Positions 17,673-37,287 of a DNA stretch of 60,042 nt are shown piece after piece (within the stretch, counting starts at the first letter, position 1; each line of letters opens with the position of its first letter). Under the pieces are notes generated by a model. The model saw only the letters and a list, made by a program, of their open reading frames with translations. It was not told where the DNA came from and ran no database searches. This DNA comes from Escherichia phage Greed. The translations under genes were made by a program, and so were the position numbers. The stretch lies in the sequence record KX534337; one strand, given 5' to 3'.

Positions 17673-17693
17673 GGGGCGTTAGCCCCTTTTATT
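17673..17693 (+). terminator. Putative rho-independent terminator
   Basis: GGGGC/GCCCC stem with GTTA loop followed by TTTTATTT. Confidence 0.45.
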
Positions 17694-17703
17694 TGGAGGG
17701 AAC

Positions 17704-18505: not shown

Positions 18506-18668
18506 TAAATATCCTTTGGTTTATACAAGGGACATTATCCAACGTTTGCAGGATACAGAAACAGCTCTGACTGAATGTAAACTGAGGGTTAAGGAAATCA
18601 TACGCTATGAAGCTGAAAATGTTTCGCTTGATTTTGTAGGATCAAGCAATTATATTCAGCCTAAATAG
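18363..18668 (+). CDS. Outer-membrane lipoprotein spanin (Rz1-like), overlapping the i-spanin in another frame
   Basis: Signal peptide with lipobox-like ICAGCS followed by a PPPPP run, as in lambda Rz1; overlapped arrangement with the Rz-like gene. Confidence 0.55.
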   Translation: MPTSKLILMSVFLMICAGCSTEIQPPPPPQIVKIKLPAHLLVECREVDKYPLVYTRDIIQRLQDTETALTECKLRVKEIIRYEAENVSLDFVGSSNYIQPK

Positions 18669-18688
18669 CAATAAGAAAGGGGGCTTCC

Positions 18689-20783: not shown

Positions 20784-20794
20784 CTGGAGGGTAT

Positions 20795-22291
20795 ATGGGT
20801 ATTGATGCAACTCACCCGCTATATGACAAGTGGAAGGACGCATGGGTTAAGTGCAACGACTGCTATGAGGGTGAAGATAAAATTAAGGAAGAAGGTGTTA
20901 AATATCTACCACCTTTAGCTTCCATGATTATTGATGGGATGAATAATCCTAATGATTTGGGCTTTCAACGTTGGCTCGCTTATCGTCTGCGTGCTAACTT
21001 CCCTGACGATTATTCAAGTGCGGTTACAAACAATTTAGGTCTGCTACACCAGAAGCCTCCTACAATCCAGCTCCCACCTGAAATGGAATACATGCGGGAG
21101 CTGTGTACTGCGGACGGTGAAGACATTATTGCTCTGCTACGTCGCATCAATGAAATGCAGTTAAAAAATGGACGTTTGGGCCTGCTGCTGGACTTGCCGA
21201 AAGGTGAGGATGTAAATAACAGACCTTATATTAGCGTTTATGATGCTTTATCCATTATCAACTGGGATGATGGTAAAGATGAATTGGGCAATATCAACTT
21301 GAACATGGTTGTTCTGGATGAAAGCGGTCCTGTACGTGTCAATCAGTTTGACTGGAAAGAAGAGAAGCGTTATCGCGTTCTACAATTAGGTCCAATGGAC
21401 ACAGATGAAGTAGCAGGTGGAGCGGTCTACTCCCAACATCTGTTTATTAACAATACCAATTATGATGAAGGGCAAATGATTGCTCCTTATTATAAAGGTA
21501 ATACGCTGGATGAAATTCCTTTCCAGTTTGTCAATACAACAGATATTACCCCAGCACCGGAAGCGCCGCCATTGTTGGGTCTTGCTAACATTTGTCTAAG
21601 CATGTACCGAAGTGACGCGGATTACCGCCAATGCTTGCATATGCAGGGTCAGGATACTTTAGTTGTTGTTGGTGGCTCTGGCGAGAATGGGGATAAAGCC
21701 CCTCAACGTATTGGTCCTGGTGCGGTGATTAACGTTGCTCTTGGGGGTGACGCTAAATATGTAGGCGTTAGCGGCGATGGTTTGTCCGAGCAACGCCTTG
21801 CATTGGCGGCGGATAAGCAGGAAGCTCAGATTAAAGCTGGGCAGATGGTAAACAACACCAAGAGCACGCAGGAATCAGGCGAAGCTATGAAAACGCGTAT
21901 TGCTGCGCGTACCGCTAGCCTGATTCGAATTGCGTATACTGGTGCGGCAGGTTTGGAAAACTTGCTGAAGGTCTGCGCTAAATGGATGGGTGCTGATCCA
22001 GAGAAAGTTGTGGTTAAGCCTAATCTTGAATTTACCAAGAGCATGTTTAACGGTCAGGACTTTGTTCAAATTATTACTGCACGCAACCTTAAGGCTCCGA
22101 TCAGTTTGCAGTCTATTCATGGCTGGCTTGTTGATCAGGGCTTAACCACACTAAGCTTTGAAGAAGAAATGGCAATTCTTGAAGAAGAGCTTAAGAAGTG
22201 GCCTCTGCCCGATGATGCTAAAGCTGATTTAAACGCAGAGCAGCAAGTAAACAAAGATCCTAAGGAAGACGACGCTTCCGATAAAGAATAG
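20795..22291 (+). CDS. Portal protein
   Basis: 498 aa ORF directly after terL with an acidic C-terminus; standard gene order. Confidence 0.6.
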   Translation: MGIDATHPLYDKWKDAWVKCNDCYEGEDKIKEEGVKYLPPLASMIIDGMNNPNDLGFQRWLAYRLRANFPDDYSSAVTNNLGLLHQKPPTIQLPPEMEYMRELCTADGEDIIALLRRINEMQLKNGRLGLLLDLPKGEDVNNRPYISVYDALSIINWDDGKDELGNINLNMVVLDESGPVRVNQFDWKEEKRYRVLQLGPMDTDEVAGGAVYSQHLFINNTNYDEGQMIAPYYKGNTLDEIPFQFVNTTDITPAPEAPPLLGLANICLSMYRSDADYRQCLHMQGQDTLVVVGGSGENGDKAPQRIGPGAVINVALGGDAKYVGVSGDGLSEQRLALAADKQEAQIKAGQMVNNTKSTQESGEAMKTRIAARTASLIRIAYTGAAGLENLLKVCAKWMGADPEKVVVKPNLEFTKSMFNGQDFVQIITARNLKAPISLQSIHGWLVDQGLTTLSFEEEMAILEEELKKWPLPDDAKADLNAEQQVNKDPKEDDASDKE

Positions 22292-22386
22292 TTGCAACTT
22301 GCAAGTTGATCGGTTTATATTAACGAACACGGGGCTGGGACGGCTCAGCCCCAAAAACGTCACACGGGTGACAACGGAGATAAGAA

Positions 22387-23259
22387 ATGAAAAAGAGTTC
22401 TGTAGCTATTAGTGTTGGTATGGCTTTGATTAATCCACGCGCTCGCGGTGAAGGTGATGTGGAACTGGAATATGAATATGCATCTGCGGAAGAAATCCCG
22501 GCAGAGTTTGCTGCTCTTTACGCAGAGCAGGGCGGTAAATACGTTCTTGCAAAAGTTAAAGGTGTAGCCCCTGCTGATAGCGTTCGTCGTCTGGAAAGTG
22601 CGTTAGCTAAAGAACGTAACGACCATCGTCAGGTGAAGCAACAGATTAGCGCGCTTGGGCGTCCGGTTGAAGAAGTTCTTGCGGACCTTGATCGTATCCC
22701 TCAACTGGAAGCTGCCGCTAACGGTAAAGGTACTCCGGAAGACATCGAAAAGATGGTTAAAGCCCGTCTTGCTCCGCTCGAGCGTCAATTACAAACTGTA
22801 GCAGCTGAACGCGATTCCGTTAAGCAGGAAATTGAAGGCTACCGCACTCGCGAAACTAAAGCGAAGATTAAAGACGCAGTTATTGCTGCTGCATCCGGTG
22901 CTAAGCTGCGTCCGTCTGCTATCGAAGATGCGGTGACTTATGCACAGTTGCAAATGACCGTCGACGAGAACGGCAATGTGGTTACGAAAGATGGGGCTGG
23001 TGTAACTCCATACCTGACTCCGGCTGATTGGCTGAACGAAATCCTTCCGAAACGTCCGCACTGGGCTGAAGGATCTGCTGGTGGTGGTGCATCTGGTCCG
23101 GGCGCTGGCGGACATCACGGCGAAGACCCTTACAGTCACGACGGTTGGAACATCTCTAAACAGATGAATCTCTGGAAAACTAATCAATCTTTAGCTAAAC
23201 GCTTAGCTGAAAAGAATGGCGTAGACCCGCTGAAGCCTGTACGTCCTGCTAAGAAATAA
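22387..23259 (+). CDS. Putative scaffolding/head morphogenesis protein
   Basis: 290 aa, charged coiled-coil-like protein between portal and major capsid genes. Confidence 0.4.
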   Translation: MKKSSVAISVGMALINPRARGEGDVELEYEYASAEEIPAEFAALYAEQGGKYVLAKVKGVAPADSVRRLESALAKERNDHRQVKQQISALGRPVEEVLADLDRIPQLEAAANGKGTPEDIEKMVKARLAPLERQLQTVAAERDSVKQEIEGYRTRETKAKIKDAVIAAASGAKLRPSAIEDAVTYAQLQMTVDENGNVVTKDGAGVTPYLTPADWLNEILPKRPHWAEGSAGGGASGPGAGGHHGEDPYSHDGWNISKQMNLWKTNQSLAKRLAEKNGVDPLKPVRPAKK

Positions 23260-23273
23260 GTTGACATCCCGAC

Positions 23274-23305
23274 GTCCCTGATGTTAAGTTTCAACACATC
23301 AGGGA
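23274..23305 (+). promoter_or_regulatory. Stem-loop in the leader of the major capsid gene
   Basis: Inverted repeat GTCCCTGATGTT/AACACATCAGGGAC with 8-nt loop and no T-tract; lies in a 122-nt leader. Confidence 0.35.
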
Positions 23306-23381
23306 CACGGGTTCCTAAACAGCCTTCCACGGGGAAAGGCTACCAACAGTAAACAAATCAATCCTTTTCCTGGAGACAAGT

Positions 23382-24443
23382 ATGTCTAAATCTAAAATTA
23401 TTCTACCATTTGGTCGTGGTGAAACTGACCTGACTCGTTTGAAGGATGTCATTGTCCCTGAGATCTTCACTGGTTATGTGCAGACGCAGACCGCTGAACT
23501 TTCTGCTCTGATTCAATCCGGTGCGGTTGTAATGGACGAGCGTTTATCTGCTAACCTTGCTGGTGCAGGTCTGACTTTTAACGAGCCGTTCTATAACGAC
23601 CTGAAAGATGAAGACGAAGATATCGCTGTTGATAAAGGCGATCCGTCCAAACCGTCTAACATCACTACCGGATCTGAAGTTCAGGTTCGTATGAGTCGTT
23701 CAAAATCCTGGGGTTCTGCGGATCTGGTATCAGCTTTGATTGGTAACGACCCAATGACCGCTATCGGTAACCGCGTGTCTGCGTGGTGGGTCCGCCGTCT
23801 GCAAGCTGCATACATCGCAACCTGGAAAGGTGTATTTGCTAATGCGAAGAAATCTCATAACGACGATTTGACTTTCGACATCTCTGGTTCTTCTTTTGTA
23901 AATAACCAGACCAACTTTACCGCGTCTAACTTCATCAACGCAACTGCAACGATGGGTGATGCTGCCCGCGGTCTGACTATGATTATGGTACACTCTACCG
24001 TTCGTAACCGTATGCGTCAGTTGAACCTGATCGACTTCATTCCAGATGCTCGCGGTGAAACTCAGTTTGAGTATTATCAGGGTCTGCGTATTATTGAAGA
24101 CGACTCCATGCCACACGATCCGTCTGCTGGTGTGTTTGAAAGCTGGCTGTTCGGCCCGGGCGCAACTGCAATGGGTGCTGGATCACCGAAAGTTCCGACC
24201 GCTGTGGTGCGTGACGAAGCCGCTAACCAAGGCGCTGGTGAAGAAGTTCTTCACAACCGTGTTGAATGGATTCTGCATCCGGTTGGCCATGCTTGGGCTG
24301 CTGCTCAAACTGCTAAAGGTGGTCCGTCTAACGCTGCTACCACTAACAACCTGGCCCATGAAGATTCCTGGCGTCGTGCGTTCCCTGAGCGCAAGCAGCT
24401 TAAAGTTGCACGCCTGATCACTCGTGAGTATCAGGGTTCCTAA
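23382..24443 (+). CDS. Major capsid protein
   Basis: 353 aa; position after the scaffold-like gene, long leader, terminator immediately downstream. Confidence 0.6.
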   Translation: MSKSKIILPFGRGETDLTRLKDVIVPEIFTGYVQTQTAELSALIQSGAVVMDERLSANLAGAGLTFNEPFYNDLKDEDEDIAVDKGDPSKPSNITTGSEVQVRMSRSKSWGSADLVSALIGNDPMTAIGNRVSAWWVRRLQAAYIATWKGVFANAKKSHNDDLTFDISGSSFVNNQTNFTASNFINATATMGDAARGLTMIMVHSTVRNRMRQLNLIDFIPDARGETQFEYYQGLRIIEDDSMPHDPSAGVFESWLFGPGATAMGAGSPKVPTAVVRDEAANQGAGEEVLHNRVEWILHPVGHAWAAAQTAKGGPSNAATTNNLAHEDSWRRAFPERKQLKVARLITREYQGS

Positions 24444-24474
24444 GGCTTCACTCAACGCCGCGCTGTAGTATTTT

Positions 24475-24501
24475 GGGGACATCTTATGTCCCCTCTTTTT
24501 T
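24475..24501 (+). terminator. Rho-independent terminator after the major capsid gene
   Basis: GGGGACAT/ATGTCCCC stem with CTT loop followed by TCTTTTTT. Confidence 0.55.
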
Positions 24502-24513
24502 AGGAGAACAACC

Positions 24514-24837
24514 ATGCGTTATCAACGTTATGAACGACATGACTTGATGGAAAAATCGTTGCAGGTGGAGCCAATTTCAATTACTCTCGATCCTGCTACG
24601 ATTGACACCACAACTTCAGAAGTAAAAACGGTTACTGTTAAAATAAACTTTGTCCCAGGCGGAACTACAAACAAAGCGTATAGCGCGTCAGTTGACGGTT
24701 CCTCTGCTACAATTAAAGACAACGGGGACGGTACAATTACCGTGACCACAACCGAAAGCAGCGGTACTTCAAACTTGACAGTAACGTCCAAGGCAAAGGA
24801 TAGTGTTACTGGTACATGTGTTATTAATGTGACCTAA
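24514..24837 (+). CDS. Ig-like (Big_2-type) domain protein, possible capsid decoration
   Basis: 107 aa; Thr/Ser/Val-rich beta-strand pattern TVKINFVPGG...GTITVTTTESSG...TCVINVT typical of bacterial Ig-like domains. Confidence 0.45.
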   Translation: MRYQRYERHDLMEKSLQVEPISITLDPATIDTTTSEVKTVTVKINFVPGGTTNKAYSASVDGSSATIKDNGDGTITVTTTESSGTSNLTVTSKAKDSVTGTCVINVT

Positions 24838-24853
24838 AAATAAGGATTAAACA

Positions 24854-25507
24854 ATGAAGACATTAATTGAAGCATTGTTAGAACTTGATCCGGAAAACCC
24901 GAATCATTGGACCAGCGATGGCTTACCTAAAGTAGACGCTCTGCGTTTCGCTACCGCTAACCCGTCTTTAACCCGCGACGATATTACGACTGCTGCCCCT
25001 CTATTCACCCGCGATAACCGCGTGCTGGAAGAGCCCGAGCCAGTGGAACCTGTTAAATCTGCTGATCCAGTTTTACATGAAGCTGTCAAACAGGAGAAAG
25101 CTCATGAAGAACAAAAGAAAGTCGCGGTTGCAACGATGCAAATCGAAGTTAAGATTAGCGAAGCACTGCGTGCTCTTCTGGAGCCGGAAAAAATCGGTGA
25201 CGCTTCCAGCTTAACCGATGAAGAAATGAAAGCGAAGCGCGAAAAGCTTAGCAATGTGGTTAAAGAGATTGCCCACACTAAGCACGCGTTAGAGATCGCT
25301 ATCGCAGACGTTCAAGCGGATCTGGATAAGATTATCGTTGAGCAGGAGCGTCGTCGTCCTAAGTCCGGTCTTACTGCAACTCAGATGTATCTTGAAGCGC
25401 AGAAAAAACGTAAACCGGAAGACATGCTTTCTGACCATCGCTTCCAGAACCCTATTGACGATCCGGTCGCCCGTATGGTTGCACGTAATATGATGCGTCG
25501 AGGTTAA
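24854..25507 (+). CDS. Hypothetical structural-module protein (217 aa)
   Basis: Charged, helical-looking ORF between capsid and connector genes. Confidence 0.45.
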   Translation: MKTLIEALLELDPENPNHWTSDGLPKVDALRFATANPSLTRDDITTAAPLFTRDNRVLEEPEPVEPVKSADPVLHEAVKQEKAHEEQKKVAVATMQIEVKISEALRALLEPEKIGDASSLTDEEMKAKREKLSNVVKEIAHTKHALEIAIADVQADLDKIIVEQERRRPKSGLTATQMYLEAQKKRKPEDMLSDHRFQNPIDDPVARMVARNMMRRG

Positions 25508-25645
25508 CCATGGAAATGAGCCATAGACAATATGTGTTGTGGCTCCTCCGACGTAATAGAAAACGGCGTCAAGAAGACGCCGTTTCTGTTCCTGAAGAAG
25601 AGCTCCCGCCGCTTATCCCTACAACCATCGCAATGAGGAAGAAAG

Positions 25646-26152
25646 ATGGAGATTCCACTGATAGTTGAAGATGGTACTGGTGTACCGGACGCCAACAGTT
25701 ATGTTACCATTGAACAAGTCCGCATGTATGCAGCAATGCGAGGTATTGTACTTCCAAGTGAAGACGAAGATCTAAAGACAAAGATCTTTGACGCTATGGA
25801 TTTTGTGGAAGGGTACAGCCAACGCTTTAAAGGTTATAAAATTAACCCACAGCAACCGCTAAATTGGCCACGCTACGGGGTGTTTGTGGACGGGTTCGAG
25901 CTACCCCAAAGCCCCTTACCAAAGGCGCTTATAAACGCTGTTTGCCAGCTTACAGCGGACTCAGCTACTGGCGGTCCTCTTAATGGGAAAACTACTGCAT
26001 ATGCAGTCAAAAGAACTAAAGTAGAAGGTCTTGAGATTGAATACGCAACTGGTAGCACAGCACAGTCAGGTCCAGCAAAAACATATGATAAAGCTATGAC
26101 GTTTTTATCACCTTTGCTGGGTTATCAAATGGGTAATAGACTGATACGGTGA
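25646..26152 (+). CDS. Putative head-tail connector/adaptor protein
   Basis: 168 aa ORF in the canonical position after capsid genes; assignment by synteny. Confidence 0.4.
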   Translation: MEIPLIVEDGTGVPDANSYVTIEQVRMYAAMRGIVLPSEDEDLKTKIFDAMDFVEGYSQRFKGYKINPQQPLNWPRYGVFVDGFELPQSPLPKALINAVCQLTADSATGGPLNGKTTAYAVKRTKVEGLEIEYATGSTAQSGPAKTYDKAMTFLSPLLGYQMGNRLIR

Positions 26153-26155
26153 TTT

Positions 26156-26536
26156 ATGAGCTTTCCTTACGAGCAGCTAGTTGAAGCTGCAAAGCAAATG
26201 ATCAACGATGCAGGTGTTAACTGTACCCTTGTGGTTATGGAGCAAGGGGAAGGTCAAGATGAATGGGACGATCCAAGCGTTGAAAAACGATACCCATTCA
26301 TCGGAGCTTTCCTTTCACCGAAGGAAAAGATGATTGGTGGCAGTCTTGTTTCTGCTGGTGAACTGAAAGTGTTGACTTACCCAATGACACCTCCATTGAC
26401 TCGCGATAAAGCAATGACTGCACGCATTGAGCGTGTGTCACCGGATGGGGAACTGGAAGTGTGGACAATAAATGAGTTTGTTGATACACGACCAGCTAAC
26501 GTTTCTGTTTTTTACACTTTTAAGGTCACGCGATAA
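26156..26536 (+). CDS. Putative head closure protein
   Basis: 126 aa, tightly coupled; synteny-based. Confidence 0.35.
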   Translation: MSFPYEQLVEAAKQMINDAGVNCTLVVMEQGEGQDEWDDPSVEKRYPFIGAFLSPKEKMIGGSLVSAGELKVLTYPMTPPLTRDKAMTARIERVSPDGELEVWTINEFVDTRPANVSVFYTFKVTR

Positions 26537-26943
26537 TGGGATTCGGGGCGGATATTCGACGTGCAAGTCAGAAGGTACTTGTTCAGACAAGCGAGCAGGC
26601 CAAAAAAGTCGTTGTCAAGTTCACAGAGAACGTGATACAGGATACTCCTGTTAAGACCGGACGCACAAAAGGTGGTTGGCGGTCATCCATTGGTGCGCCG
26701 TATGCAACGGAAACTATCCGCCTCGATCCTACTGGAGAGATGGCTAAAGCTGAAGCCCGAGTTGTTGCACGCCAACTACCTAATGATAAAGACTGGACTT
26801 TCTATTTTAGCAACCTGACACCATATGCTGGCAAACTGGAGTTCTTAGGTTGGTCACAGCAAGCCCCGAACGGTATGGTTCGTATTAACGTAGCGAAGCT
26901 TCCAATGTTGATACGTCAAGCTATAGCAGAAGGAAAACTATAA
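26536..26943 (+). CDS. Putative neck/tail completion protein
   Basis: 135 aa; ATGA-type overlap with the upstream gene; synteny-based. Confidence 0.35.
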   Translation: MGFGADIRRASQKVLVQTSEQAKKVVVKFTENVIQDTPVKTGRTKGGWRSSIGAPYATETIRLDPTGEMAKAEARVVARQLPNDKDWTFYFSNLTPYAGKLEFLGWSQQAPNGMVRINVAKLPMLIRQAIAEGKL

Positions 26944-27392
26944 TGCTTGGATACGATTTCATTAATGATGCATTTAATAAGATGCTACGCGAAGCAGTTG
27001 GACCGGATATTGGTATAGCGTGGAAGAATAAGAAGTTCACACCTAAAGCCAACCAGATGTGGTTAAAGGCAATCAATGCTCCCGCTTCCACTTACGCTGC
27101 AACGCTAGGTGATAACGGTCTGAATGAAATTCCAGGCTTCTACCAAATCACAGTATATAGTCCTTTAAACACTGGAACGTCTAAGCAGAATCAAATCTTG
27201 GATTCTATTCGGAAAAAGTTTAAACTGGGCTTGCGTATCCCGTGCCCGGATGACCACACGTTACGGATTGTCAGTTTAGACTTTTCGCAAGGTGGACAAA
27301 CTTCGCTGAACGATTTTACCAAAGGCGGGGTTGAAGATAACTGGGACGTTAACTTTATCACAATCTATTGGTCGGCTCGTGAGCCGAGGTAA
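26943..27392 (+). CDS. Putative tail terminator protein
   Basis: 149 aa immediately upstream of the major tail protein; synteny-based. Confidence 0.35.
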   Translation: MLGYDFINDAFNKMLREAVGPDIGIAWKNKKFTPKANQMWLKAINAPASTYAATLGDNGLNEIPGFYQITVYSPLNTGTSKQNQILDSIRKKFKLGLRIPCPDDHTLRIVSLDFSQGGQTSLNDFTKGGVEDNWDVNFITIYWSAREPR

Positions 27393-27406
27393 GAGAGGAT
27401 CTAAAT

Positions 27407-28330
27407 ATGGCTACAGGTTCACGTTATTCGTGTTACTACGTCAAAGAAGATGTAAGCAACACTACGCCAGCGAGTGCGAAGTTTACTCCGTTCCGTGTGA
27501 CCAGCTCCGGTCTGGACATTAATATTGCAACGCTGGAATCTGAAGAACTGCGCGATGACGCTGAAACTGCGGACTTCCGCCTCGGTGCTCGCAGTGTTGA
27601 AGGTACAGTAACGGGCGAAATGTCCTTCGGCACCTTCGATGATCTTATTGCTGCTGCACTTCGTGGGGAGTGGCAAGACAACGTCCTTAAAGGCGGTATT
27701 ATCCGTCAGTCATTTACTTTCGTAGACTATAACGCAGATCTACCGTCAGGTAAATATACAATTTATCGCGGTTGTGAAGTTAACAGCATGACTTTCTCAT
27801 TGTCTGCTGAAAACATGACCACAGTAGAGTTCGGTATTGTTGGTCGTTCTATGGAGATTGCGGAATCCTTACCTGCTGGATCTTCTATCAAAGCGCGTAC
27901 AACTACTTCTCCGATGGACGGCTTCTCTGGTCGCTTGCTGGAAAACGACGAAGAGATTAGCGTTATTACGGAAATCGGTCTTACTGTTGAAAACGATATT
28001 GCACCGCGCTTTGTTGTTGGTTCTAAGTTCTCCATTGAACCGTCCGCTGGTCGCCGTGCGGTAACTGGTACAGCTAACGTTTACTTCCTGGATAACAAGC
28101 TGCGTATGAAGTATCTGGATGAAGTGGAAACTTCAATCAAGTTTGATCTGATTGACCCAAGCAATCCGGAACAAAAATACACTGTGGAAATTCCTCGCGT
28201 GAAATTCACTGAAGCTCCGCGTCCTATTGACGGTGAAGGGGATATCATGCTTAATATGGGCTACCGCGGATTGCTGGACCCAGCAACCGCAAGTTCCATC
28301 AAAATTACCCGCGTTGTAGCGGGAGGCTAA
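27407..28330 (+). CDS. Major tail protein
   Basis: 307 aa, strong RBS, located before the chaperone/tape-measure genes. Confidence 0.55.
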   Translation: MATGSRYSCYYVKEDVSNTTPASAKFTPFRVTSSGLDINIATLESEELRDDAETADFRLGARSVEGTVTGEMSFGTFDDLIAAALRGEWQDNVLKGGIIRQSFTFVDYNADLPSGKYTIYRGCEVNSMTFSLSAENMTTVEFGIVGRSMEIAESLPAGSSIKARTTTSPMDGFSGRLLENDEEISVITEIGLTVENDIAPRFVVGSKFSIEPSAGRRAVTGTANVYFLDNKLRMKYLDEVETSIKFDLIDPSNPEQKYTVEIPRVKFTEAPRPIDGEGDIMLNMGYRGLLDPATASSIKITRVVAGG

Positions 28331-28339
28331 GGATAAGAA

Positions 28340-28747
28340 ATGACCGACACCAAAAAAGCCAAAGTTGTAGTAGCTAAAAGCTTCCGTGATTTTAAAACTG
28401 TGAGCCGGGCTAACGACCCGGCAAACACTAAGCCAATGAATGTGGTTATTCCTGGTGTAGGCGACACTGGCGAAAAACTCTACATTCGTAGCCGCTACTG
28501 CACAGAGTACCGTGATGCCGAACTGAAAGCACAGCGTCAACTGTTGGCGCTTATGCAGGGTAAAGACGGTGAAGTAACGGATGCTATGAAGGAAGATATC
28601 CTTACCCGTTCACTGTGTAACCTTGTAGCAGGTTGGACTTTTGACGAGCCACCGACTGTTGACAACGTGTTTGAGTTCTTAACGGAGAACCCAACTGTCC
28701 GAGAAGATCTTAACGTATTTGCCGCTAAAGATAGTAATTTTTTCTAA
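28340..28747 (+). CDS. Tail assembly chaperone (gpG-like)
   Basis: 135 aa ORF directly upstream of the tape measure gene, ending in a slippery heptamer. Confidence 0.55.
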   Translation: MTDTKKAKVVVAKSFRDFKTVSRANDPANTKPMNVVIPGVGDTGEKLYIRSRYCTEYRDAELKAQRQLLALMQGKDGEVTDAMKEDILTRSLCNLVAGWTFDEPPTVDNVFEFLTENPTVREDLNVFAAKDSNFF

Positions 28748-29145
28748 AAGCGCGCAGACAGTTAATTGATAAGAAGATCCTCCAATGGGAACTAAATAGC
28801 AAAGTCCCCGGCGGGGGATCTTCTTTATTATCGCAACTGCAAAAGGTTGAGGAACAGTCTGGTAAGACGCCACCTAAGCTTAAAGAATATCGGGAAAAGG
28901 AAATACCGGTTTGCTTTGAATACCTGTCTACTTTATTTGATGACATTTACACTGGAGGGGATTTTAGTTATACAGAATTGCACAGCTATCAGGTAACAAT
29001 GGGCTTACATCTTCAACCGTACGAATGCGAAATACTGCGACAGCTATGGCTTGAAAAGCGCGTGTCTGAAGCTGAACAAAATGCTAAACTCATGGAAAGT
29101 CAAATGCAAAATCAGAATAAAGGTAGAAGGAAAAGGAGAAGGTAA
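28340..29145 (+). CDS. Tail assembly chaperone frameshift product (gpGT-like; -1 shift at 28738..28744)
   Basis: Slippery heptamer T_TTT_TTC at the last codons of the 28340 ORF; the -1 frame has no start codon but stays open for 134 codons to TAA at 29143, overlapping the tape-measure ATG. Confidence 0.55.
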
Positions 29146-32100
29146 TGGCCGAAACTGCTTCGCTAGTAATCAGAGTTGACGCGAAAGGGATTAGCACAGC
29201 GGACTCCATGCTGCGCAACCTTGCGCGTACAGGTGACACAGCGGAGCGTTCCGCTCAACGTGTCACATCCAGCTATAAAACATTGTCTAACACATCTAAC
29301 GAACTTGCAACTGTCACAAGTCGTTTAGATGCTGCAATTGTAGGAATGATCAGCGTTGACACCATTAACCGTGTTATTTCGCTATCGGACTCCTGGACTA
29401 TCCTCACCAACAAACTTGAACTGGCTCGTACGGGTAATGAAACCGTTGCGGATGCACAGCAACGCGTGTTTGATATTGCCCAGCGGTCACGTACAAGCTT
29501 GGAAGCAACTGCAACTCTATATTCCCGTCTCCAGCGTGCAATGAAGAATACTGGTATGACGGGTATGGAGCTTGGACGTATCACTGAAACAATTAACAAA
29601 GCGATGATTGTTTCCGGTGCAACGTCACATGAAGCAAGCGCTGCTCTTATTCAGTTTTCGCAAGCAATGGCATCCGGTGTTTTGCGCGGGGATGAATTCC
29701 GTTCTGTTGCAGAACAAGCCCCGCGCTTAACTCAAATCATGTCCGATGCATTAGGTGTTACCATTGGACAATTGCGTGAAATGGCTTACAGCGGCAAGTT
29801 GAGCGCCGATGTGGTTATCAAATCGTTGTCTGGTGCTGCGGATACAATTGATAAAGAATTTAGCCGCACTATGCCAACGTTTAACCAGCAATGGACGGTT
29901 GCAACAAACAACTTGACTAAGTTCATGGGCGAATCCCAAAAGACTCAAGGTGCGGTTGCTGCATTGGGACAGACGTTTGTTGCGTTATCCAAAAACTTAG
30001 GAACGGTTGTAACAGTTGGTTCAGCTTTAGCCACAGTAATTACCGCCCGTATCATTACGGCAATGCTTGCTAAGACTAAAGCGTCTATAGCTGCTGCAAA
30101 AGCATCGCAGATGGAAGCTGCACAAACGGCGGCAACTACTGCGGTGATGCAAAGCTCTATTGGCGTTACCGCGCAGAAAGCGGCTGCGGATCGTGCTGCT
30201 TCTCTTGCAGCGTTACAGGTTGCTCGCGGGTCATTAGCGGTTGCTAAAGGTACGGCAGCGGAAGCAGGCGCACGTCTTGCGCTTATTAACGCTACCCGTG
30301 CGCATTCTGCGGCAATTATGGCGGACGTACAAGCGCGGCAAGCGCTCAATGCTGCACTTAATGCAACTGTACCAGCCGCAAGCCGGGCAGCTACAGCAAT
30401 GAGCGTGCTGCGCGGTGCTATGGGGTTAATTGGCGGTCCTGTTGGTGTAGCAATGCTGGCAGCGGGTGCAATTTACTCTTATAAAGCATCGCTGGAAGCT
30501 GGTCGTGCGGAAAACAATCAGTTTGCGGATAGTGTTGATTCTGTACGCGAGAAACTGATGCAGATGACAGAAGCTCAGTTGGCAGCTAACGCAGTTAAAG
30601 CTCGCGCAATCCTCCCCGAACTTGAAGAGCAAATGAAGCGGGAGCAAACTGCTCTTAAATCTGCAACGGAAACGCAGAAGTTCTATGAAGCACAATTAAA
30701 ACGTCGTGCTGCGTCCGGTCGTGATACAGCTAGTGCTGAGAAAAATTTACAGATTGCTACGGATAACGTCAAGCTTGCTGCTGAACGTGCTGAAGAAGCT
30801 CAACGCCGTTACAACAATGTCTTAGAAATGACAAGCCCTGCTATCGAGAAGATAATTCCGTTAGCTCGTCAGCTTGCAGCGGATATGAAAGCAGTGCTTA
30901 ATATCAAATCCGGTCCGCTTATTGACGAGAAAGTGCTTGATCGTTTTAAAGGTCAGTTAGGTGACGTTAACCGTGAGATTGACGTTAACACGGTCAAAGG
31001 TGCTGGTAACGCTCGCCAGGCTGCAATCCTTAGTGGGCTGTATCAAACTCTGGGCAAAGATGCAGACACCTACGGAAGTCTAATTCGCAAAGTAGCTATG
31101 GGGCAGGATGTTAGCTCTGAAGCAACAAGCGAGTCCGCAAAAGAACTTGTTAAATATGCTCAAGAGCTAGCGGAAGCTTACGGCAAGAATTATGATCTCG
31201 AGGAAGCGGAGAGGAACCGAACTAAAGCGACAAAAGACGGTATTAAAGCAGAACAACAGAACGCCAAAGTTATTGACGATTTACGCAACAAGCTTAACGA
31301 AGTAACCACAGGGGTTAAGGAAAACGCTAAAGCTAAAGCGCAAGCTGTAGCACTCAATAAGTTAAATGCGTCCGCAACGGCTGCGGAAAAAGCAGAAGTT
31401 GTTAGTCTTGCTGCTGCAATTTACGATGCAGAAGAAGCTCAAAAGAAACTGGACGATCGTAAGAAGAATCGTAAGTTTGCTCAGGGTCTGTTAGATGAAG
31501 GTATGACAGACTACGCGCAAATTGAATACGAGATGCAAGAAAAGATTATGAAGCTTCACAGGGATCAACAAGCGGATGATCTTGAGCATTATAAGCTCTA
31601 CGAAGATGCAAAGACGCAAGTCCTGAAGAAAGCAAGTATGGAAAGAGAAAATCTGGATAAAGTTCTTATGAACCGAATGATATCCTTTTCTCAGGAATCC
31701 TTAGGCATTATAATGGATGGCCTGTCACAGGCTGTAAGCCAGCAGAACTTCTTTTATAAAGCTATGTTTGCAGCACAGAAAGCAATGCAAATCCCATCAA
31801 TCCTTGCCAACACGGAAACGGCAGCATCTGCGGCGCTTGCATGGGGTACACAGCAAGGAGGTGCTACGATGGGTGCAACAATGGCAGCTATAGTGAAAAC
31901 TATGGGTTATGCGTCCGCTGCTACTGTGGGTGGCTTAGCGATCGCTGGTATGGCTCACGACGGTATTGATAACGTTCCGCGTGAAGGTACATGGCTGCTG
32001 GATAAGGGTGAACGTGTACTTAATGCTCCGTCTAATGACAAGTTAAATCGCTTCCTGGATAGCCAAGCTTCACAACAAGGTGGCGTGAATATGTCCGGTG

Positions 32101-32261
32101 GTGTTAGCATTGTTCAGTATATCACGGTGCAAGGGAATGGCGATGCAGCACTCACACAAGCCATGCAAAAAGCGGCCCGTGATGGCGCTGAGCAGGGATA
32201 TAATAAAGTTCTTAATGACTTTGCATCCCGAGGAACAATTCGTAGAACTGCAATGGGGTAA
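29145..32261 (+). CDS. Tape measure protein
   Basis: 1038 aa, Ala/Gln-rich helical protein with hydrophobic segments, directly after the chaperone pair. Confidence 0.8.
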   Translation: MAETASLVIRVDAKGISTADSMLRNLARTGDTAERSAQRVTSSYKTLSNTSNELATVTSRLDAAIVGMISVDTINRVISLSDSWTILTNKLELARTGNETVADAQQRVFDIAQRSRTSLEATATLYSRLQRAMKNTGMTGMELGRITETINKAMIVSGATSHEASAALIQFSQAMASGVLRGDEFRSVAEQAPRLTQIMSDALGVTIGQLREMAYSGKLSADVVIKSLSGAADTIDKEFSRTMPTFNQQWTVATNNLTKFMGESQKTQGAVAALGQTFVALSKNLGTVVTVGSALATVITARIITAMLAKTKASIAAAKASQMEAAQTAATTAVMQSSIGVTAQKAAADRAASLAALQVARGSLAVAKGTAAEAGARLALINATRAHSAAIMADVQARQALNAALNATVPAASRAATAMSVLRGAMGLIGGPVGVAMLAAGAIYSYKASLEAGRAENNQFADSVDSVREKLMQMTEAQLAANAVKARAILPELEEQMKREQTALKSATETQKFYEAQLKRRAASGRDTASAEKNLQIATDNVKLAAERAEEAQRRYNNVLEMTSPAIEKIIPLARQLAADMKAVLNIKSGPLIDEKVLDRFKGQLGDVNREIDVNTVKGAGNARQAAILSGLYQTLGKDADTYGSLIRKVAMGQDVSSEATSESAKELVKYAQELAEAYGKNYDLEEAERNRTKATKDGIKAEQQNAKVIDDLRNKLNEVTTGVKENAKAKAQAVALNKLNASATAAEKAEVVSLAAAIYDAEEAQKKLDDRKKNRKFAQGLLDEGMTDYAQIEYEMQEKIMKLHRDQQADDLEHYKLYEDAKTQVLKKASMERENLDKVLMNRMISFSQESLGIIMDGLSQAVSQQNFFYKAMFAAQKAMQIPSILANTETAASAALAWGTQQGGATMGATMAAIVKTMGYASAATVGGLAIAGMAHDGIDNVPREGTWLLDKGERVLNAPSNDKLNRFLDSQASQQGGVNMSGGVSIVQYITVQGNGDAALTQAMQKAARDGAEQGYNKVLNDFASRGTIRRTAMG

Positions 32262-32264
32262 TAT

Positions 32265-32849
32265 ATGCTCACTTGGCCCGAAGAAATTAGACCGTCTGAG
32301 ATGGAATGGTATCTAGTTTCAAACTCTGTAGAATTTACAAGCCCCTTCAATGGGGCTTCCCAAACTGTGTCCTATCCTGGATCACGATGGGAAGCAACGT
32401 TGACATTTAGTAATTTAAATGACTGGCAATCCAGAAAGCTCGAATCAACATTAGCTAAGCTTGATGGTAAAGCTGGTCGAATTATGCTTCAAGATTTTGG
32501 TCGTTGGGGACGCGCACCGATTGGATCACCTGTGGTTAACGGTGCAAACAATACAGGGACAACTTTATCAACTAAAGGTTGGACACCTAATAGAAAGGTT
32601 TTATGGGAAGGGGATTACATCGCAGTAAACGATGAATTAAAATTAATAACCGAGGATGCTTGGAGCGATTCTTCTGGCAACGTGATATTAAATATCGCCC
32701 CGATGCTAAGGACTATTCCACCGAATGGGGCTAAAATCGAGACTCAAAAGCCACAAGGGGCTTTCCGGTTAGCGGAAAATACTAACGGGGTTAAGCGTCA
32801 GCCCGCTTTTAATAATTCATTCACTCTAAAATTCTCGGAGGCGTTCTAA
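32265..32849 (+). CDS. Minor tail protein (distal tail, gpM-like position)
   Basis: 194 aa immediately after the tape measure gene; synteny-based. Confidence 0.45.
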   Translation: MLTWPEEIRPSEMEWYLVSNSVEFTSPFNGASQTVSYPGSRWEATLTFSNLNDWQSRKLESTLAKLDGKAGRIMLQDFGRWGRAPIGSPVVNGANNTGTTLSTKGWTPNRKVLWEGDYIAVNDELKLITEDAWSDSSGNVILNIAPMLRTIPPNGAKIETQKPQGAFRLAENTNGVKRQPAFNNSFTLKFSEAF

Positions 32850-33433
32850 TGCTATTCAGTCCTTTCAGCGATACGCTTCTCAACGCAATGGAGCAGTCGA
32901 ACGTTAGTCTGGTACTTGCTGCGGAAATTGACTTTCCTTCTGGTGTAACGCGTGTGCATACTGGGACAGGGCTTGTTGTTATTAATGGTCAAACTTTCCT
33001 TGGCGTTGGTACTCTTGGGGACGTTGGGTCAGTGACTGAGGAAAACAGCACTAGCTCCAGCACAATGTCCATGGCGCTTAGCGGTCTGGACATGAGTCTT
33101 GTTGGGGAGACATTAAACGAAGAAGTTATCGGGCGTAATGTTGTTTGCTATATTGCAGTAATGAACGAGCAAGGAAATGTCATTGCTGCTAATGTTTTAT
33201 TTGAAGGTTTTATTACCGACACGGCATTAAAAGCTGGTCAACAGAATGCATTGAGTTATGTTATTTCCAACGTTTTTGAGCGTTGGTCACAAGGTTTACC
33301 GGATCGCTATACAGATGAAAGTCAACAGCGTTTATATCCGGGCGACCGTTTCTTTAGATACATTGCACAAATGGCTGAACGTTCAATCTTTTGGGGGAGT
33401 AAGAAAGATGCGCCAGGGTTCTCCTATGAGTAA
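32849..33433 (+). CDS. Minor tail protein (gpL-like position)
   Basis: 194 aa, ATGC overlap with the upstream gene; synteny-based. Confidence 0.45.
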   Translation: MLFSPFSDTLLNAMEQSNVSLVLAAEIDFPSGVTRVHTGTGLVVINGQTFLGVGTLGDVGSVTEENSTSSSTMSMALSGLDMSLVGETLNEEVIGRNVVCYIAVMNEQGNVIAANVLFEGFITDTALKAGQQNALSYVISNVFERWSQGLPDRYTDESQQRLYPGDRFFRYIAQMAERSIFWGSKKDAPGFSYE

Positions 33434-33842
33434 GTTACCGGGCTGGCAGACACGTTTATTAACCACAGTAAAGGAGTTGTCATCGACTCCTTTTTCTTGG
33501 GGTGAAAATGATTGCTGCACCTTCGCGGCTAAATGTGTTGATGCGCAATACGGCACAAATATCTACGAACAAGTCGCTGGAAAATATAGTACAGAGCTTG
33601 GAAGTAAAAAGTTCACTATTGAAAGAGTTGGAACCGCTTACCTTCCATTGTTATTGGATACCTACCTCAGCGAACGAGTTGACAAGAACTATGCGCAAAG
33701 AGGTGATGTGGTTACATTTGAGGGAGCATTGGGCTTAACTGCTGGCATATTATGGACTGGATATGTATGGGCTATGGGTCCGAACGGTGTGGAAACATTC
33801 CCGCTTAATAAGATCAAAATTACGGATATTTGGAGGGTCTAA
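33426..33842 (+). CDS. Tail assembly protein with NlpC/P60-like motif (gpK-like C-terminal half)
   Basis: ATG at 33426; GENDCCTFAAKC and QRGDVVTFEG resemble the NlpC/P60 Cys region of lambda gpK. Confidence 0.45.
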   Translation: MSKLPGWQTRLLTTVKELSSTPFSWGENDCCTFAAKCVDAQYGTNIYEQVAGKYSTELGSKKFTIERVGTAYLPLLLDTYLSERVDKNYAQRGDVVTFEGALGLTAGILWTGYVWAMGPNGVETFPLNKIKITDIWRV

Positions 33843-36800
33843 TGCCACCAGCAATAATTGGAGCAGCAATAGCTTTAGGTGCGTCGGCTGCTGCTGCGGC
33901 TAGTATTATTTCGGCCACTACCGCTCTCGTTATCGGTATTGCTGCAACCGCGGCAGGTGCTCTTTTAACTAAGACACCAAATATGAACTTTGATGCTTAC
34001 AAGGGGCAGCAAGAGCGTAAACAGGTTCTGCGTGCAGCTACAGCGTCACGTTCTGTTGTATATGGCACGACCGTAGCGTCCGGACTATTAGCATTTGCGG
34101 AGGAAGAAGCTGGAGATCAAGATGAAGGTGAATGGATGCATCTTGTTGTCGTTCTTGCTAGTCATAAATTGGAAGGTATTGAAACGATTTGGTTGGGTGA
34201 TGACGGAATTGATTGGTTTGGTGAAAACGCTACTTGGGAGTTCCATAACGACCGTCAGACTGTTGACCCATTCATGTTAAAACATTGTCCTTCCTGGAAG
34301 GAGGATATGATTGGCAAGGGTATTGCATGGCTACGTTTAAGCTTAAAGTTTGATGCTGAAAAATTCCCATCCGGTTTGCCAAACGTCAAGGTGTTGAAAA
34401 AGGGACGTAGAGTTTATGACCCACGTTCCGGTCAAACTGTCTTTAGCGATAACGCTGCTCTTGTTATTCTTGATTATTTCCGCACGTATTTAAAGCGAAA
34501 GGACGAGAATATTAACTGGGACCAATTCAAGGAAGCTGCTAACATCTGCGATGAGTTTGTTACTAACGCAGATAACACTACGGAAAGACGCTATCGCATT
34601 AACGGTGAGTTTGAAGTGGACGAAGCACCTGCCAAGATCCTTGATGCTATGCTTGAAGCTTGCGGTGGGGAACTAACCTATATTGGCGGTAAGCATGGTC
34701 TGTTAGTTGGTGCTTATTACGGCCCGGCCACCATGACTTTGGATGAAAGCTGCATTGCTGGGGATATCAAAATAATCCCTGAGACGTCTTATAAAGAGCG
34801 TACCAATACCATTACAGGTACATTCGTCGACCCGAAGCAAACATACGCTGAAGCAGATTTCCCTCCAGTTGTGGTTAAGGAATGGGTGGAAAAAGATGGC
34901 GGTGAAATAACGCAAGACATGGATTTCCGCTTTGTTACAAGCGAATATCAAGCTCAACGTCTTGCTAATATTATTTTACGTCGTAAGCGTGTTGGTCGAA
35001 CAATTGAAGTGCCGTGTAACATGAAGGGGTATAAATTCCGCCCGGGCATGTATGTCAACGTAACCATTTCAAATATCGGAATGAAAAACGTTGAGATGCG
35101 CGTTACTAAATGGTCATTCGATCCTAAAGGTGGGATTAATCTTGTCCTTCGTCAAGATTTCCTGGAAATGTGGGACGACGCTATTGGTAAACCAATGGAG
35201 CGCCCGGATCTGGTAGACCTTCCGTCTGGTGCTATTGCTCAACCGCAAAACCTTCAGTATCAGGTATTGCAAATTAGCGATGTTGTGCAGGGTGTTTTAA
35301 CGTGGAGCAATATTGGACAGGTGGCATATAACCGCGTAGCCGTGCGACAGGGAGGTACAACGGTTTGGACCGCACAAGTCCCTGGCCAAAACGTTCGCGT
35401 TACTGGGTTGCTGCGGGGCGCGTATACAGCGCATGTTCAAGCGGTAGCTTATAGCGGGGCAATATCGCCTGAAGCATATCTGGAATTTAATATTCAGGCT
35501 CCGCCGCCACCAACATCTATTGAAGTACAACAGGGTTACTTTGCTATAAGCCTGATCCCTAAATCTGCGGACCTTGCAAACGTTAGCACGCAGTATGATT
35601 TTTGGACTTCCGGTGAAACAAGATTGTCATCTGTGTCTACAGAGGTTGTTGAGCGTGAAGCAACTCGTAAAGGTATGGGCACAACCTGGACTTCGGAAGG
35701 TTTGAAGAATGACCACACTTATTACTGGTATGTCCGCACCATTAACGCTTTCGGATCATCTGCATTTGTAGAAGTAGCTGCATTGTGCTTTACAACAGCT
35801 ACAGATTTGATGCCACAAATTGATTCTGAATTTAAGAAGACGGAGACTTATAAAGAGCTCACTACTGAAATCACAGGTGTTAAAGATGGAGTTACTCAGC
35901 TTAGCCAAACTGTAGTAGAAACTGAACAGCGTTTAAGTCAAAGCGTTAGCAATGTTCAACAAAGCGTTATTACTTTGGATGGTGTTGTTCAGGATCAGGG
36001 CGTTACCATTAACGAACAAGGACAGCTCATCGATGCACAGGGTAAGTTGATTGACACTCAAGGTAAGACTATTGAAACGGTTAGCGCGACCGTGCAGGAG
36101 ACAAGTAAAGCAGTTGTAGATCTGGAAGGTAATGTTAACGCTCAATGGGGTGCTAAGGTACAAGTTGACAGCAAAGGGCAAAAATACGTTGCTGGTATCC
36201 AGCTAGGTATGGAGGGTTCCGGTGGGGCTGTTCAGTCTTACTTCATGGTAAGCGCTAACAACTTTGCTATCTATAACCCGACAAATAGCGTAGCAGAACT
36301 AGCATTTGCTGTTAAGAACGGTCAAGTGTTCATGAAGGCTGCGTTTATTGAAAATGGTACTATTGACAGCGCTAAAATTTCAAATCAAATTCAGTCAACA
36401 AACTACGCAAACAATAGCGCGGGTTGGATGATTAACAAGAATGGTAGCGCTCAGTTTAACAACGTAACGATAAGAGGTACTGTATACGCTAGCAACGGAT
36501 CTTTCACAGGCACAGTGAACGCAACAAGCGGTAAATTCAAGGGTACTGTGGAAGCTACCAGTTTTGTGGGTGATGTTGCGAATATGTGTGTCATTGCTGA
36601 GTCTGCAATACCAAACACACAAACTACAAGTTCAAGAACCTGGACAAAAACTTTCAAAGACTCATCTGGTTCAACATTATCTAAAGACTTTGTGTTGCTA
36701 TTAAGTTATAGTTTAACCGCATATACATCAAATCAGGCAAGTCGTATAATTGTGACTGCTAACATAGGGGGGACATCAATCACAAGGAGGATTGAGCGAG

Positions 36801-36964
36801 CTGCTAATGGTCCTGCCATGGATGTAACCATACCTTTAGCAGTGAAAGGAAAGACAGCGTCGAGCGTAACAATAAGCGTTAAGGAGGAGTATACGAACGT
36901 CTATGGGAGCTACTTGCGCCCGTCTGTAATATTAATGACTCGCGGAACTGGTAGTTGGTCGTAA
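33830..36964 (+). CDS. Central tail fibre/host-specificity protein (gpJ-like) with N-terminal gpI-like hydrophobic segment
   Basis: 1044 aa; segments align with lambda gpJ (VAGIQLGMEGSGG vs VAGIGLSMEDTEEG; fibronectin-like region YYWYVRTINAFGSSAFVE vs YYFYIRSVNTVGKSAFVE); the first 45 residues are an Ala/Gly-rich hydrophobic stretch like the gpI C-terminus. Confidence 0.75.
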   Translation: MEGLMPPAIIGAAIALGASAAAAASIISATTALVIGIAATAAGALLTKTPNMNFDAYKGQQERKQVLRAATASRSVVYGTTVASGLLAFAEEEAGDQDEGEWMHLVVVLASHKLEGIETIWLGDDGIDWFGENATWEFHNDRQTVDPFMLKHCPSWKEDMIGKGIAWLRLSLKFDAEKFPSGLPNVKVLKKGRRVYDPRSGQTVFSDNAALVILDYFRTYLKRKDENINWDQFKEAANICDEFVTNADNTTERRYRINGEFEVDEAPAKILDAMLEACGGELTYIGGKHGLLVGAYYGPATMTLDESCIAGDIKIIPETSYKERTNTITGTFVDPKQTYAEADFPPVVVKEWVEKDGGEITQDMDFRFVTSEYQAQRLANIILRRKRVGRTIEVPCNMKGYKFRPGMYVNVTISNIGMKNVEMRVTKWSFDPKGGINLVLRQDFLEMWDDAIGKPMERPDLVDLPSGAIAQPQNLQYQVLQISDVVQGVLTWSNIGQVAYNRVAVRQGGTTVWTAQVPGQNVRVTGLLRGAYTAHVQAVAYSGAISPEAYLEFNIQAPPPPTSIEVQQGYFAISLIPKSADLANVSTQYDFWTSGETRLSSVSTEVVEREATRKGMGTTWTSEGLKNDHTYYWYVRTINAFGSSAFVEVAALCFTTATDLMPQIDSEFKKTETYKELTTEITGVKDGVTQLSQTVVETEQRLSQSVSNVQQSVITLDGVVQDQGVTINEQGQLIDAQGKLIDTQGKTIETVSATVQETSKAVVDLEGNVNAQWGAKVQVDSKGQKYVAGIQLGMEGSGGAVQSYFMVSANNFAIYNPTNSVAELAFAVKNGQVFMKAAFIENGTIDSAKISNQIQSTNYANNSAGWMINKNGSAQFNNVTIRGTVYASNGSFTGTVNATSGKFKGTVEATSFVGDVANMCVIAESAIPNTQTTSSRTWTKTFKDSSGSTLSKDFVLLLSYSLTAYTSNQASRIIVTANIGGTSITRRIERAANGPAMDVTIPLAVKGKTASSVTISVKEEYTNVYGSYLRPSVILMTRGTGSWS

Positions 36965-36971
36965 TAAATAA

Positions 36972-36995
36972 TTAACCCCTCAAACGAGGGGTTAA
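36972..36995. terminator. Bidirectional rho-independent terminator
   Basis: TTAACCCCTC/GAGGGGTTAA stem with AAAC loop, flanked by A/T runs on both sides; lies between the convergent gpJ-like and lipoprotein genes. Confidence 0.55.
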
Positions 36996-36998
36996 TTT

Positions 36999-37232
36999 TC
37001 AATAATCGATCACACAGTTTGAAGGTGAGCCAATTCGTCGGTATTCGTGATCAATTTCATGGCACCATTGCCCAGTCATTGGAAGCTTTTCGGTATCATA
37101 AATTAAAGAACCGTTACCATCGCGATCCAAAGGTTTTGGAACGACACCGGAATTAGGTTTACCAGTATTTAAACCATTACCACATGCAGTAAGGGACAAA
37201 CATAATACCAGCATAATTAGAGCGTGTTTCAT
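36999..37232 (-). CDS. Small lipoprotein, candidate superinfection-exclusion protein (Cor/Llp-like by context)
   Basis: 77 aa; signal peptide MKHALIMLVLCLSLTACG with lipobox LTAC; encoded antisense inside the tail module next to receptor-binding genes. Confidence 0.5.
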   Translation of the reverse strand: MKHALIMLVLCLSLTACGNGLNTGKPNSGVVPKPLDRDGNGSLIYDTEKLPMTGQWCHEIDHEYRRIGSPSNCVIDY

Positions 37233-37247
37233 CGGGACTCCTTTGTG

Positions 37248-37276
37248 TTGTTGTCAAGGTTCAATTTTAATATACT
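37248..37276 (+). promoter_or_regulatory. Putative promoter for the tail fibre gene
   Basis: TTGTTG, 17-bp spacer, TATACT in the 70-bp divergent intergenic region. Confidence 0.3.
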
Positions 37277-37287
37277 TGTTGTGTTGA

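Follow-up and report, generated by a model that had tools for sequence, protein, structure and literature searches.

A putative LamB-directed exclusion lipoprotein encoded antisense to the tail genes of Escherichia phage Greed

Organization of the locus

We analysed a 60,042-nucleotide stretch of DNA from Escherichia phage Greed (sequence record KX534337), referred to here as the window; the features discussed below are collected in Table 1. With GottfriedDienst (Bas21) and CAjan the region shares 97.4% identity, with Seurat and many 'slur' phages 90–95%, and these values place the phage in Seuratvirus, Queuovirinae.

Table 1. Coordinates of features in the window
Feature	Position	Strand	Basis or remark
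Holin	17704..18048		lysis cassette, with endolysin
Rz-like i-spanin	18029..18505	+	PHROG 89, E 7e-11
o-spanin with poly-proline stretch, overlaps i-spanin	18363..18668	+	PHROG 456, E 3.5e-14
gpJ-like central tail fibre	33830..36964	+	PHROG 31 'central tail fiber J', E 2e-184
Exchangeable cassette (J tip, terminator, lipoprotein gene, promoter)	36380..37314	.	DNA comparison with VogelGryff
J distal tip, residues ~889–1044	36494..36961	+	presumed LamB-binding domain
Hairpin, 12 bp, common to the convergent J and lipoprotein genes (intrinsic terminator)	36970..36997	.	folding energy, terminator scan
Lipoprotein gene, 77 codons plus stop	36999..37232	-	PHROG 12984 'lipoprotein', E 3.6e-56 over residues 1–77 of 77
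Mature lipoprotein, 61 aa	37002..37184	-	invariant motifs PNSGV and TEKLPxTGQWC
Cys73	37014..37016	-	invariant, alignment of 25 homologs
Cys57	37062..37064	-	invariant, alignment of 25 homologs
Cys17, predicted acylation site	37182..37184	-	invariant in 25 homologs
Lipobox LTAC (L14-T15-A16-C17)	37182..37193	-	PROSITE PS00013-type rule satisfied
Signal peptide, residues 1–16, MKHALIMLVLCLSLTA	37185..37232	-	K2, hydrophobic stretch, lipobox
Shine-Dalgarno AAGGAG	37238..37243	-	strong site, 5 nt before ATG; kept in Seuratvirus, 9g and E. coli prophage copies
Sigma-70-like promoter TTGACT-16-TATATT	37269..37296	-	10/12 matches; divergent from tail-fibre gene
Lateral tail-fibre gene	37303/37315..40236	+	ORF; likely start ATG 37315 (MATRLYG...)

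A first-pass annotation made from the letters alone had described a 77-residue protein with a signal peptide and an LTAC lipobox, encoded in antisense orientation between a gpJ-like gene and a tail-fibre gene, and both the protein and its position were confirmed. The minus-strand ORF starts with ATG and translates as MKHALIMLVLCLSLTACGNGLNTGKPNSGVVPKPLDRDGNGSLIYDTEKLPMTGQWCHEIDHEYRRIGSPSNCVIDY; its N-terminus reads MKHALIMLVLCLSLTAC, then GNG after the cleavage point. The gpJ-like protein on its 3′ side comprises 1044 residues when read from a TTG at 33830, and annotated homologs begin at an ATG at 33842. In the GenBank record of Seurat the orthologous gene is a 'putative lipoprotein', and its RefSeq name is 'lipoprotein'.

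The signal peptide, with Lys at position 2 followed by an unbroken hydrophobic stretch and the lipobox, fits the PROSITE PS00013-type rule. By itself this rule is a weak criterion that does not set the gene apart from chance: the window has 7 ORFs that satisfy it, where dinucleotide shuffles give 2.1 +/- 1.4. When a canonical lipobox ([LVI][ASTVI][GAS]C) was required together with a charge-free h-region, the lipoprotein ORF was the only one in all six frames of the whole window to have both.

The J and lipoprotein genes converge on a hairpin with a folding free energy of -17.6 kcal/mol on the plus strand and -18.2 kcal/mol on the minus strand (z about -6 on both). The corresponding terminator is annotated as T18 in mEp010, and the Seurat record describes a 'bidirectional terminator between end of gene and end of apparent moron'. 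A terminator scan scored the hairpin on the minus strand only, the U-tract of the plus strand being weaker (UUUUCAAUAA). The gene is therefore isolated by a terminator on the J side only; what lies on the other side is a promoter of the gene's own. This promoter falls in the 70-bp spacer between the lipoprotein and tail-fibre genes and is identical in Bas21, Seurat and KurtStettler, even though synonymous sites in the coding sequence are near saturation in the comparison with KurtStettler. We infer that it serves the lipoprotein gene.

On the far side of the spacer, the starts of annotated homologs and a conserved GCCAT make the second of the two start codons in Table 1 the likely one for the tail-fibre gene. 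The lateral tail fibre is a single 977-aa ORF in the window, where the annotation of GottfriedDienst has three short genes (194, 36 and 113 aa; locus extract 5316..6477). It resembles its relatives over approximately the first 180 codons only, the remainder being the known hypervariable, glycan-binding part. Downstream of it lies a 278-aa ORF (40279..41115, plus strand) with a Gly/Trp-rich N-terminal half and a C-terminal PTPPTPPTGCC tail, which matches PHROG 9288 (E 2e-129), a family without known function.

Conservation of the lipoprotein and its relation to known exclusion factors

A tblastn search placed the lipoprotein in 43 phage records, which include members of Seuratvirus, the Nonagvirus 9g, Dhillonvirus (EP23, PNS1, Maverick, CS16, HH3), phages of Enterobacter, Salmonella and Cronobacter, and the temperate phages mEp010, mEp013, mEp044 and mEp554. 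The gene is also found in 34 of 5,426 complete E. coli genomes. At every locus examined (Bas21, Seurat, KurtStettler, 9g, EP23, mEp010, E. coli prophages and a Salmonella prophage) it is convergent with J and lies directly 3′ of it. In Shigella phage EP23 (JN984867; locus extract 3980..4222) and in PNS1, a clear 80-aa homolog between the J-like and tail-fibre genes is unannotated. Several other E. coli prophages carry a homolog that is frameshifted after residue 54 (…TGSGVTRLITNTDESVALLTVL; locus extract 7001..7225) and has lost the conserved WC…NC core, which by its sequence looks like a decaying copy.

In an alignment of 25 homologs, 19 columns are invariant. Cys17, Cys57 and Cys73 never change, and PNSGV and TEKLPxTGQWC hardly or not at all; the signal peptide is free to vary except for the lipobox Cys. 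The paired distal cysteines are likely to form a disulfide. Residue +2 is Gly in the window protein and is G, A, S or T, never Asp, in a 14-sequence alignment displayed in full, and by the Lol rule this predicts sorting to the outer membrane. Proline makes up 5 of the 61 mature residues (8%). In the comparison with KurtStettler, dN/dS is 0.036 for the mature part at a dS of about 1.0, with synonymous sites near saturation, and 0.39 for the signal peptide; full-length values are 0.09–0.21 in comparisons with estimable dS, and the protein of Bas23 is 94.8% identical to that of the window. The gene is under strong purifying selection.

The family is very narrow. A search of 1.84 billion representatives returned three 50%-identity clusters, and beyond these it added no remote relatives. 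The sole match outside the family was to nine repeats of a 4467-aa CshA/SdrD_B adhesin (E 5e-7), confined to residues 31–57 of the lipoprotein (DRDGNGSLIYDTE, 37062..37142), a segment that recalls an EF-hand/SdrD-like calcium-binding loop. We judged the adhesin spurious as a relative, and the resemblance, which is at motif level only, may be a coincidence.

The most informative homolog is gp116 of mEp010 (mEp010_116), to which BLASTP aligned residues 5–77 at 53% identity (E 7e-31). The substitutions listed by the authors of the mEp study for 'type-C' lipoproteins map exactly onto mEp010_116, so by sequence this is their gp116/Lpp010, one of the 'type-C' Lpp exclusion lipoproteins of mEpimmI phages, whose activity was read out as spots (PMC11893012). 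Expressed from a plasmid, Lpp010 excludes mEp010, mEp044, mEp554 and, unexpectedly, lambda, all of which depend on LamB (PMC11893012). Exclusion is not absolute, given that LamB-dependent mEp013 escapes it, which the authors attribute to variation in J (PMC11893012). Lpp010 shares with the window protein the invariant lipobox Cys, the two further cysteines, PNSGV and TEKLPxTGQWC, and its gene sits in the same layout: J, terminator, convergent lipoprotein gene, tail fibre. The tip of mEp010 J is homologous to that of the window (36–38% identity), and the receptor of mEp010 is LamB (PMC11893012). Unlike the window phage, mEp010 is temperate and falls outside the Queuovirinae, and the two lipoproteins differ in their first 10 mature residues and in the promoter region upstream. 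Exclusion by Lpp010 was shown by experiment, whereas the activity of the window protein is predicted from homology. Full-length homology, a lipobox with a non-Asp residue at +2 and two further cysteines, and a convergent position directly 3′ of a J gene with a LamB-type distal domain are all found in the window, and they support membership of its protein in the Lpp010-type (PHROG 12984) LamB-associated exclusion lipoproteins.

The first-pass annotation had called the gene a candidate superinfection exclusion factor and had offered T5 Llp and the Cor proteins as established examples. The likeness to Llp is a functional analogy. Llp (PDB 8A60, 7QJF) is likewise a small lipoprotein with a 77-aa precursor, made from its own promoter beside a receptor-binding gene; it has an internal disulfide, as the window protein is likely to have, and it inactivates the phage's own receptor, which is the role proposed for the window protein. 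Its target, however, is the TonB-dependent transporter FhuA, which it inactivates by jamming the plug, and LamB has no plug (PMC9586334); moreover, llp diverges from oad, whereas the window gene converges with J. Cor of T1, phi80, N15 and HK022 is a 75-aa lipoprotein encoded in antisense at the end of the J/RBP locus, sharing a common terminator, an arrangement identical to that in the window. It excludes phages that use the same receptor, again FhuA where LamB is the proposed target of the window gene.

Neither example shares a homologous mature domain with the window protein. The family profile found no Llp chain at E <= 10, though 8a60_B and 7qjf_A were in the PDB copy searched, and BLASTP gave no alignment to T1 Cor at E <= 100. 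In hhalign comparisons 20 columns aligned with Llp and 21 with Cor, in each case the signal peptide only. The window protein is therefore an analogue of Llp and Cor, not a relative. Scans against Pfam, NCBIfam and PADLOC returned only signal-peptide look-alikes such as LptM, and among all PDB sequences the family profile hit only PsaN (E 0.6), by chance. AlphaFold2 models of the full-length and mature-only protein, built with 25–26 homologs, had low confidence (pLDDT 56 and 61), and a Foldseek search of the PDB with the better of these low-confidence models found no match with E < 4.

A third system, Rtp45 of Rtp / the Oekolampad SE lipoprotein (PDB 9RPS), is likewise a small lipoprotein encoded in antisense, within the receptor cassette that follows gpJ in small siphophages. 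Its target is LptDE, which does not depend on TonB and which Rtp45 blocks from the periplasm through induced loop changes; by analogy, Rtp45 offers the best mechanistic precedent for the window protein. One difference is that Rtp45 is co-transcribed with a separate RBP gene, while in the window phage the RBP function is a domain of J. A sequence relation between the two is unconvincing. The hhalign comparison gave a probability of 71%; its 65 columns (26% identity) owe their alignment to the signal peptide, and an 11-residue gap deletes the TEKLPxTGQWC core and leaves the cysteines misaligned. With the family profile, hmmsearch did not find 9rps_D.

LamB use and the exchangeable cassette

Among the 43 carrier records, a receptor has been reported for eight phages (Bas21–24 and mEp010, mEp013, mEp044 and mEp554), and all eight use LamB. 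The LptD-using Queuovirinae Bas19, Bas20 and Bas25 are absent from the list, so that within the BASEL Queuovirinae carriage of the gene tracks LamB use, with four LamB-dependent Seuratviruses as carriers and three LptD-dependent non-carriers. The J tip of the window phage is 99% identical to that of LamB-dependent Bas21. From this identity, and from LamB use by every carrier of known receptor, we infer that LamB is also the terminal receptor of the window phage. Carriage of the gene is also a cheap genomic marker for LamB use.

A comparison with VogelGryff (Bas25), an LptD-using sister phage in Seuratvirus, defines the unit that is exchanged. The two sequences cease to match at the DNA level exactly over ~36380–37314 and match again from the tail-fibre start codon. 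VogelGryff J is an 883-aa protein, shorter by about 155 residues, which has no counterpart of the window J tip, and in place of the lipoprotein gene there is an antisense 333-aa RBP-like ORF (locus extract 3794..4918). Unlike in Rtp, where rtp44 and rtp45 occur together, no lipoprotein ORF was found beside this RBP-like ORF; VogelGryff may lack an exclusion factor or may encode one elsewhere. The swap fits the assignment of LamB specificity to the distal domains of GpJ (bioRxiv 10.64898/2026.04.02.716166), as well as the published view that receptor-binding and exclusion genes occupy the gpJ-downstream locus (PMC11990801 among other sources).

We compared J tips from the window, Bas21, KurtStettler, 9g, EP23, mEp010 and one E. 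coli prophage. The seven are mutually homologous (34–99% identity) and fall into two homologous classes that are 37–41% identical to each other: class A comprises the window, Bas21 and EP23, and class B comprises KurtStettler, 9g, mEp010 and the E. coli prophage. In the mature lipoprotein, 58 of 61 residues (95%) are the same in the window and in KurtStettler, one from each class, although the J tips of the two share only 37% identity. Thus it is the host receptor that constrains the lipoprotein, rather than the J tip of the phage itself, and the lipoprotein should cross-exclude unrelated LamB phages, lambda included. Exclusion of lambda by Lpp010 agrees with this, the lambda J tip being unrelated.

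Taken together, these observations bear out the exclusion-factor idea of the first-pass annotation, through homology to Lpp010 (53% identity), the layout of the locus and the tracking of LamB use, with the amendment that the receptor concerned is LamB and not FhuA. The hypothesis is correct, but it had been published before. In 2022 Van den Berg et al. stated that phages directed at LamB, Bas23 for example, 'likely do have SE lipoproteins' 3′ of gpJ, and asked how such lipoproteins could act on a receptor without allostery (PMC9586334). Exclusion lipoproteins for the LamB-targeting Bas phages were also predicted in PMC11990801, and the first functional test of the family was the 2025 mEp paper (PMC11893012). 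The result for this phage is therefore a confident annotation, not a discovery. Exclusion lipoproteins set which phages can succeed one another on one cell, which makes them relevant to phage competition and to the design of phage cocktails, and a near-identical LamB-directed factor in unrelated phages predicts broad cross-exclusion of LamB-dependent phages, lambda among them.

Proposed action on LamB and alternative readings

Because the Lpp010 homolog excludes LamB phages and the nearest relatives of the window phage depend on LamB, we consider it likely that the gene encodes a receptor-directed exclusion factor for this maltoporin. In the sequence of events that we propose, host RNA polymerase would transcribe the gene from its own sigma-70-type promoter, apart from the late tail operon, and the independent, host-type character of this promoter suggests that expression is early. 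Judging from sequence rules, the precursor would be exported by Sec, lipidated at Cys17 and cleaved by signal peptidase II; with Gly at +2, the Lol pathway would carry the lipoprotein to the outer membrane, and the Cys57–Cys73 pair would probably be oxidised to a disulfide. The 61-residue mature protein would then act on LamB in such a way that LamB-using phages, including the window phage through the distal domain of its J, cannot infect the cell. By analogy with Llp-FhuA and Rtp45-LptDE, it may bind LamB directly from the periplasmic side, and a resulting change at the LamB surface may prevent J binding, rather than a later step being blocked. For a virulent phage the likely gains would be that no secondary infections are wasted and that no progeny are lost on LamB-bearing debris and vesicles. 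The escape of mEp013, which the authors of the mEp study attribute to variation in J, favours an altered J–LamB interface over removal of the receptor.

LamB is a passive trimeric porin that lacks a lateral gate. It also has no plug and no known allostery (PMC9586334), and a mechanism acting from the periplasm is consequently not obvious. One possibility is that the lipoprotein blocks or deforms the LamB channel from the periplasmic side, in which case maltodextrin uptake would be shut off as well. Others are that it is flipped to the surface of the cell, or that it permits adsorption but blocks triggering of the tail tip. That the family disables LamB by a mechanism without precedent among the solved exclusion lipoproteins strikes us as a minority prospect, rather unlikely on balance. 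On this reading, the near-invariance of the mature protein in virulent and temperate phages whose J tips differ widely would make it a factor against LamB phages in general. How a lipoprotein of 61 residues can inactivate a plug-less porin was asked in 2022 (PMC9586334); so far only LptD has an answer, given by Rtp45 in 2025, and the present family is obvious material for finding one for LamB.

The alternative that deserves most attention is that exclusion acts after adsorption, LamB still being bound and either tail-tip triggering or passage of DNA through the envelope being blocked. Exclusion by Lpp010 was measured as plaque or spot formation only (PMC11893012), a read-out that suits this alternative, as does the lack of a known allosteric route in LamB from the periplasm to the surface (PMC9586334). 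The strain Nissle 1917 bears on the same question. It carries an intact 77-aa homolog (WP_021567253.1, 'hypothetical protein'; NZ_CP171242.1 2210840..2211073) whose gene converges on that of a J of 1308 aa; the lambdoid prophage that contains both (locus extract about 3338..47250) lies between yecE and yecD. Nissle is completely lambda-resistant, yet its LamB binds and inactivates lambda; a 'pr' repressor accounts for the resistance in part, and a further factor preventing DNA entry has been postulated (PMC5987069). The lipoprotein could be the missing factor in this complete resistance. An intact homolog in a strain whose LamB reportedly still binds lambda would, if it is expressed there, count against a block of J binding, and the Nissle copy bears on which step the lipoprotein blocks. 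On the other side, the partly protective pr gene sits in a different prophage from the lipoprotein, and the pr primers of Bury et al. gave no match in the lipoprotein-bearing prophage. All structurally solved analogues, Llp-FhuA and Rtp45-LptDE, prevent RBP binding (PMC9586334 for Llp), and mEp013 escape through J variation fits an effect on the J–LamB interface. Weighing these points, we regard a block after adsorption as improbable and favour the reading in which the lipoprotein alters LamB so that J no longer binds.

Two further functions would take the gene out of phage exclusion altogether. As a moron benefiting the host, for example through Bor-like serum resistance or modulation of maltodextrin uptake, it would match both the term 'apparent moron' used by the Seurat annotators and its presence in E. 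coli and Salmonella prophages. It is nevertheless kept under strong purifying selection in the strictly virulent Seuratvirus, Nonagvirus and Dhillonvirus, where a role in lysogen fitness is meaningless; it matches neither Bor nor any other Pfam or NCBIfam family, and its homolog Lpp010 excludes phages. We rejected the Bor-like moron on these grounds and consider a host-benefit role of any kind very unlikely. That the ORF is a chance or annotation artefact, which its shortness (77 aa) and the 7 window ORFs matching the lipobox rule alone might suggest, is refuted by the conservation data (dN/dS 0.036 at dS about 1, 19 invariant columns in 25 homologs, a conserved Shine-Dalgarno sequence and promoter, a dedicated PHROG family) and by a homolog that is active in experiment, and its probability is negligible.

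An equally negligible chance attaches to the other function, that of an Rz1-like outer-membrane spanin subunit for lysis. In its favour, the window protein is a small, predicted outer-membrane lipoprotein with conserved cysteines, and there is a weak PHROG match to 'Rz-like spanin' (E 0.15), but this covers residues 2–27 only, essentially the signal-peptide end. The lipoprotein gene lies in the tail module without an adjacent i-spanin, its product is only 8% proline, and its homolog Lpp010 excludes phages. A dedicated, overlapping spanin pair is already present in the lysis cassette, after the endolysin and holin genes (located from the CAjan RefSeq annotation and the ORF listing; Table 1), which effectively refutes a spanin role. 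The o-spanin of that pair (MPTSKLILMSVFLMICAGC, then STEIQPPPPPQ…) has an atypical lipobox, I-C-A-G-C, that fails the PROSITE rule, and at its position the CAjan RefSeq entry has a shorter, 61-aa 'hypothetical protein'.
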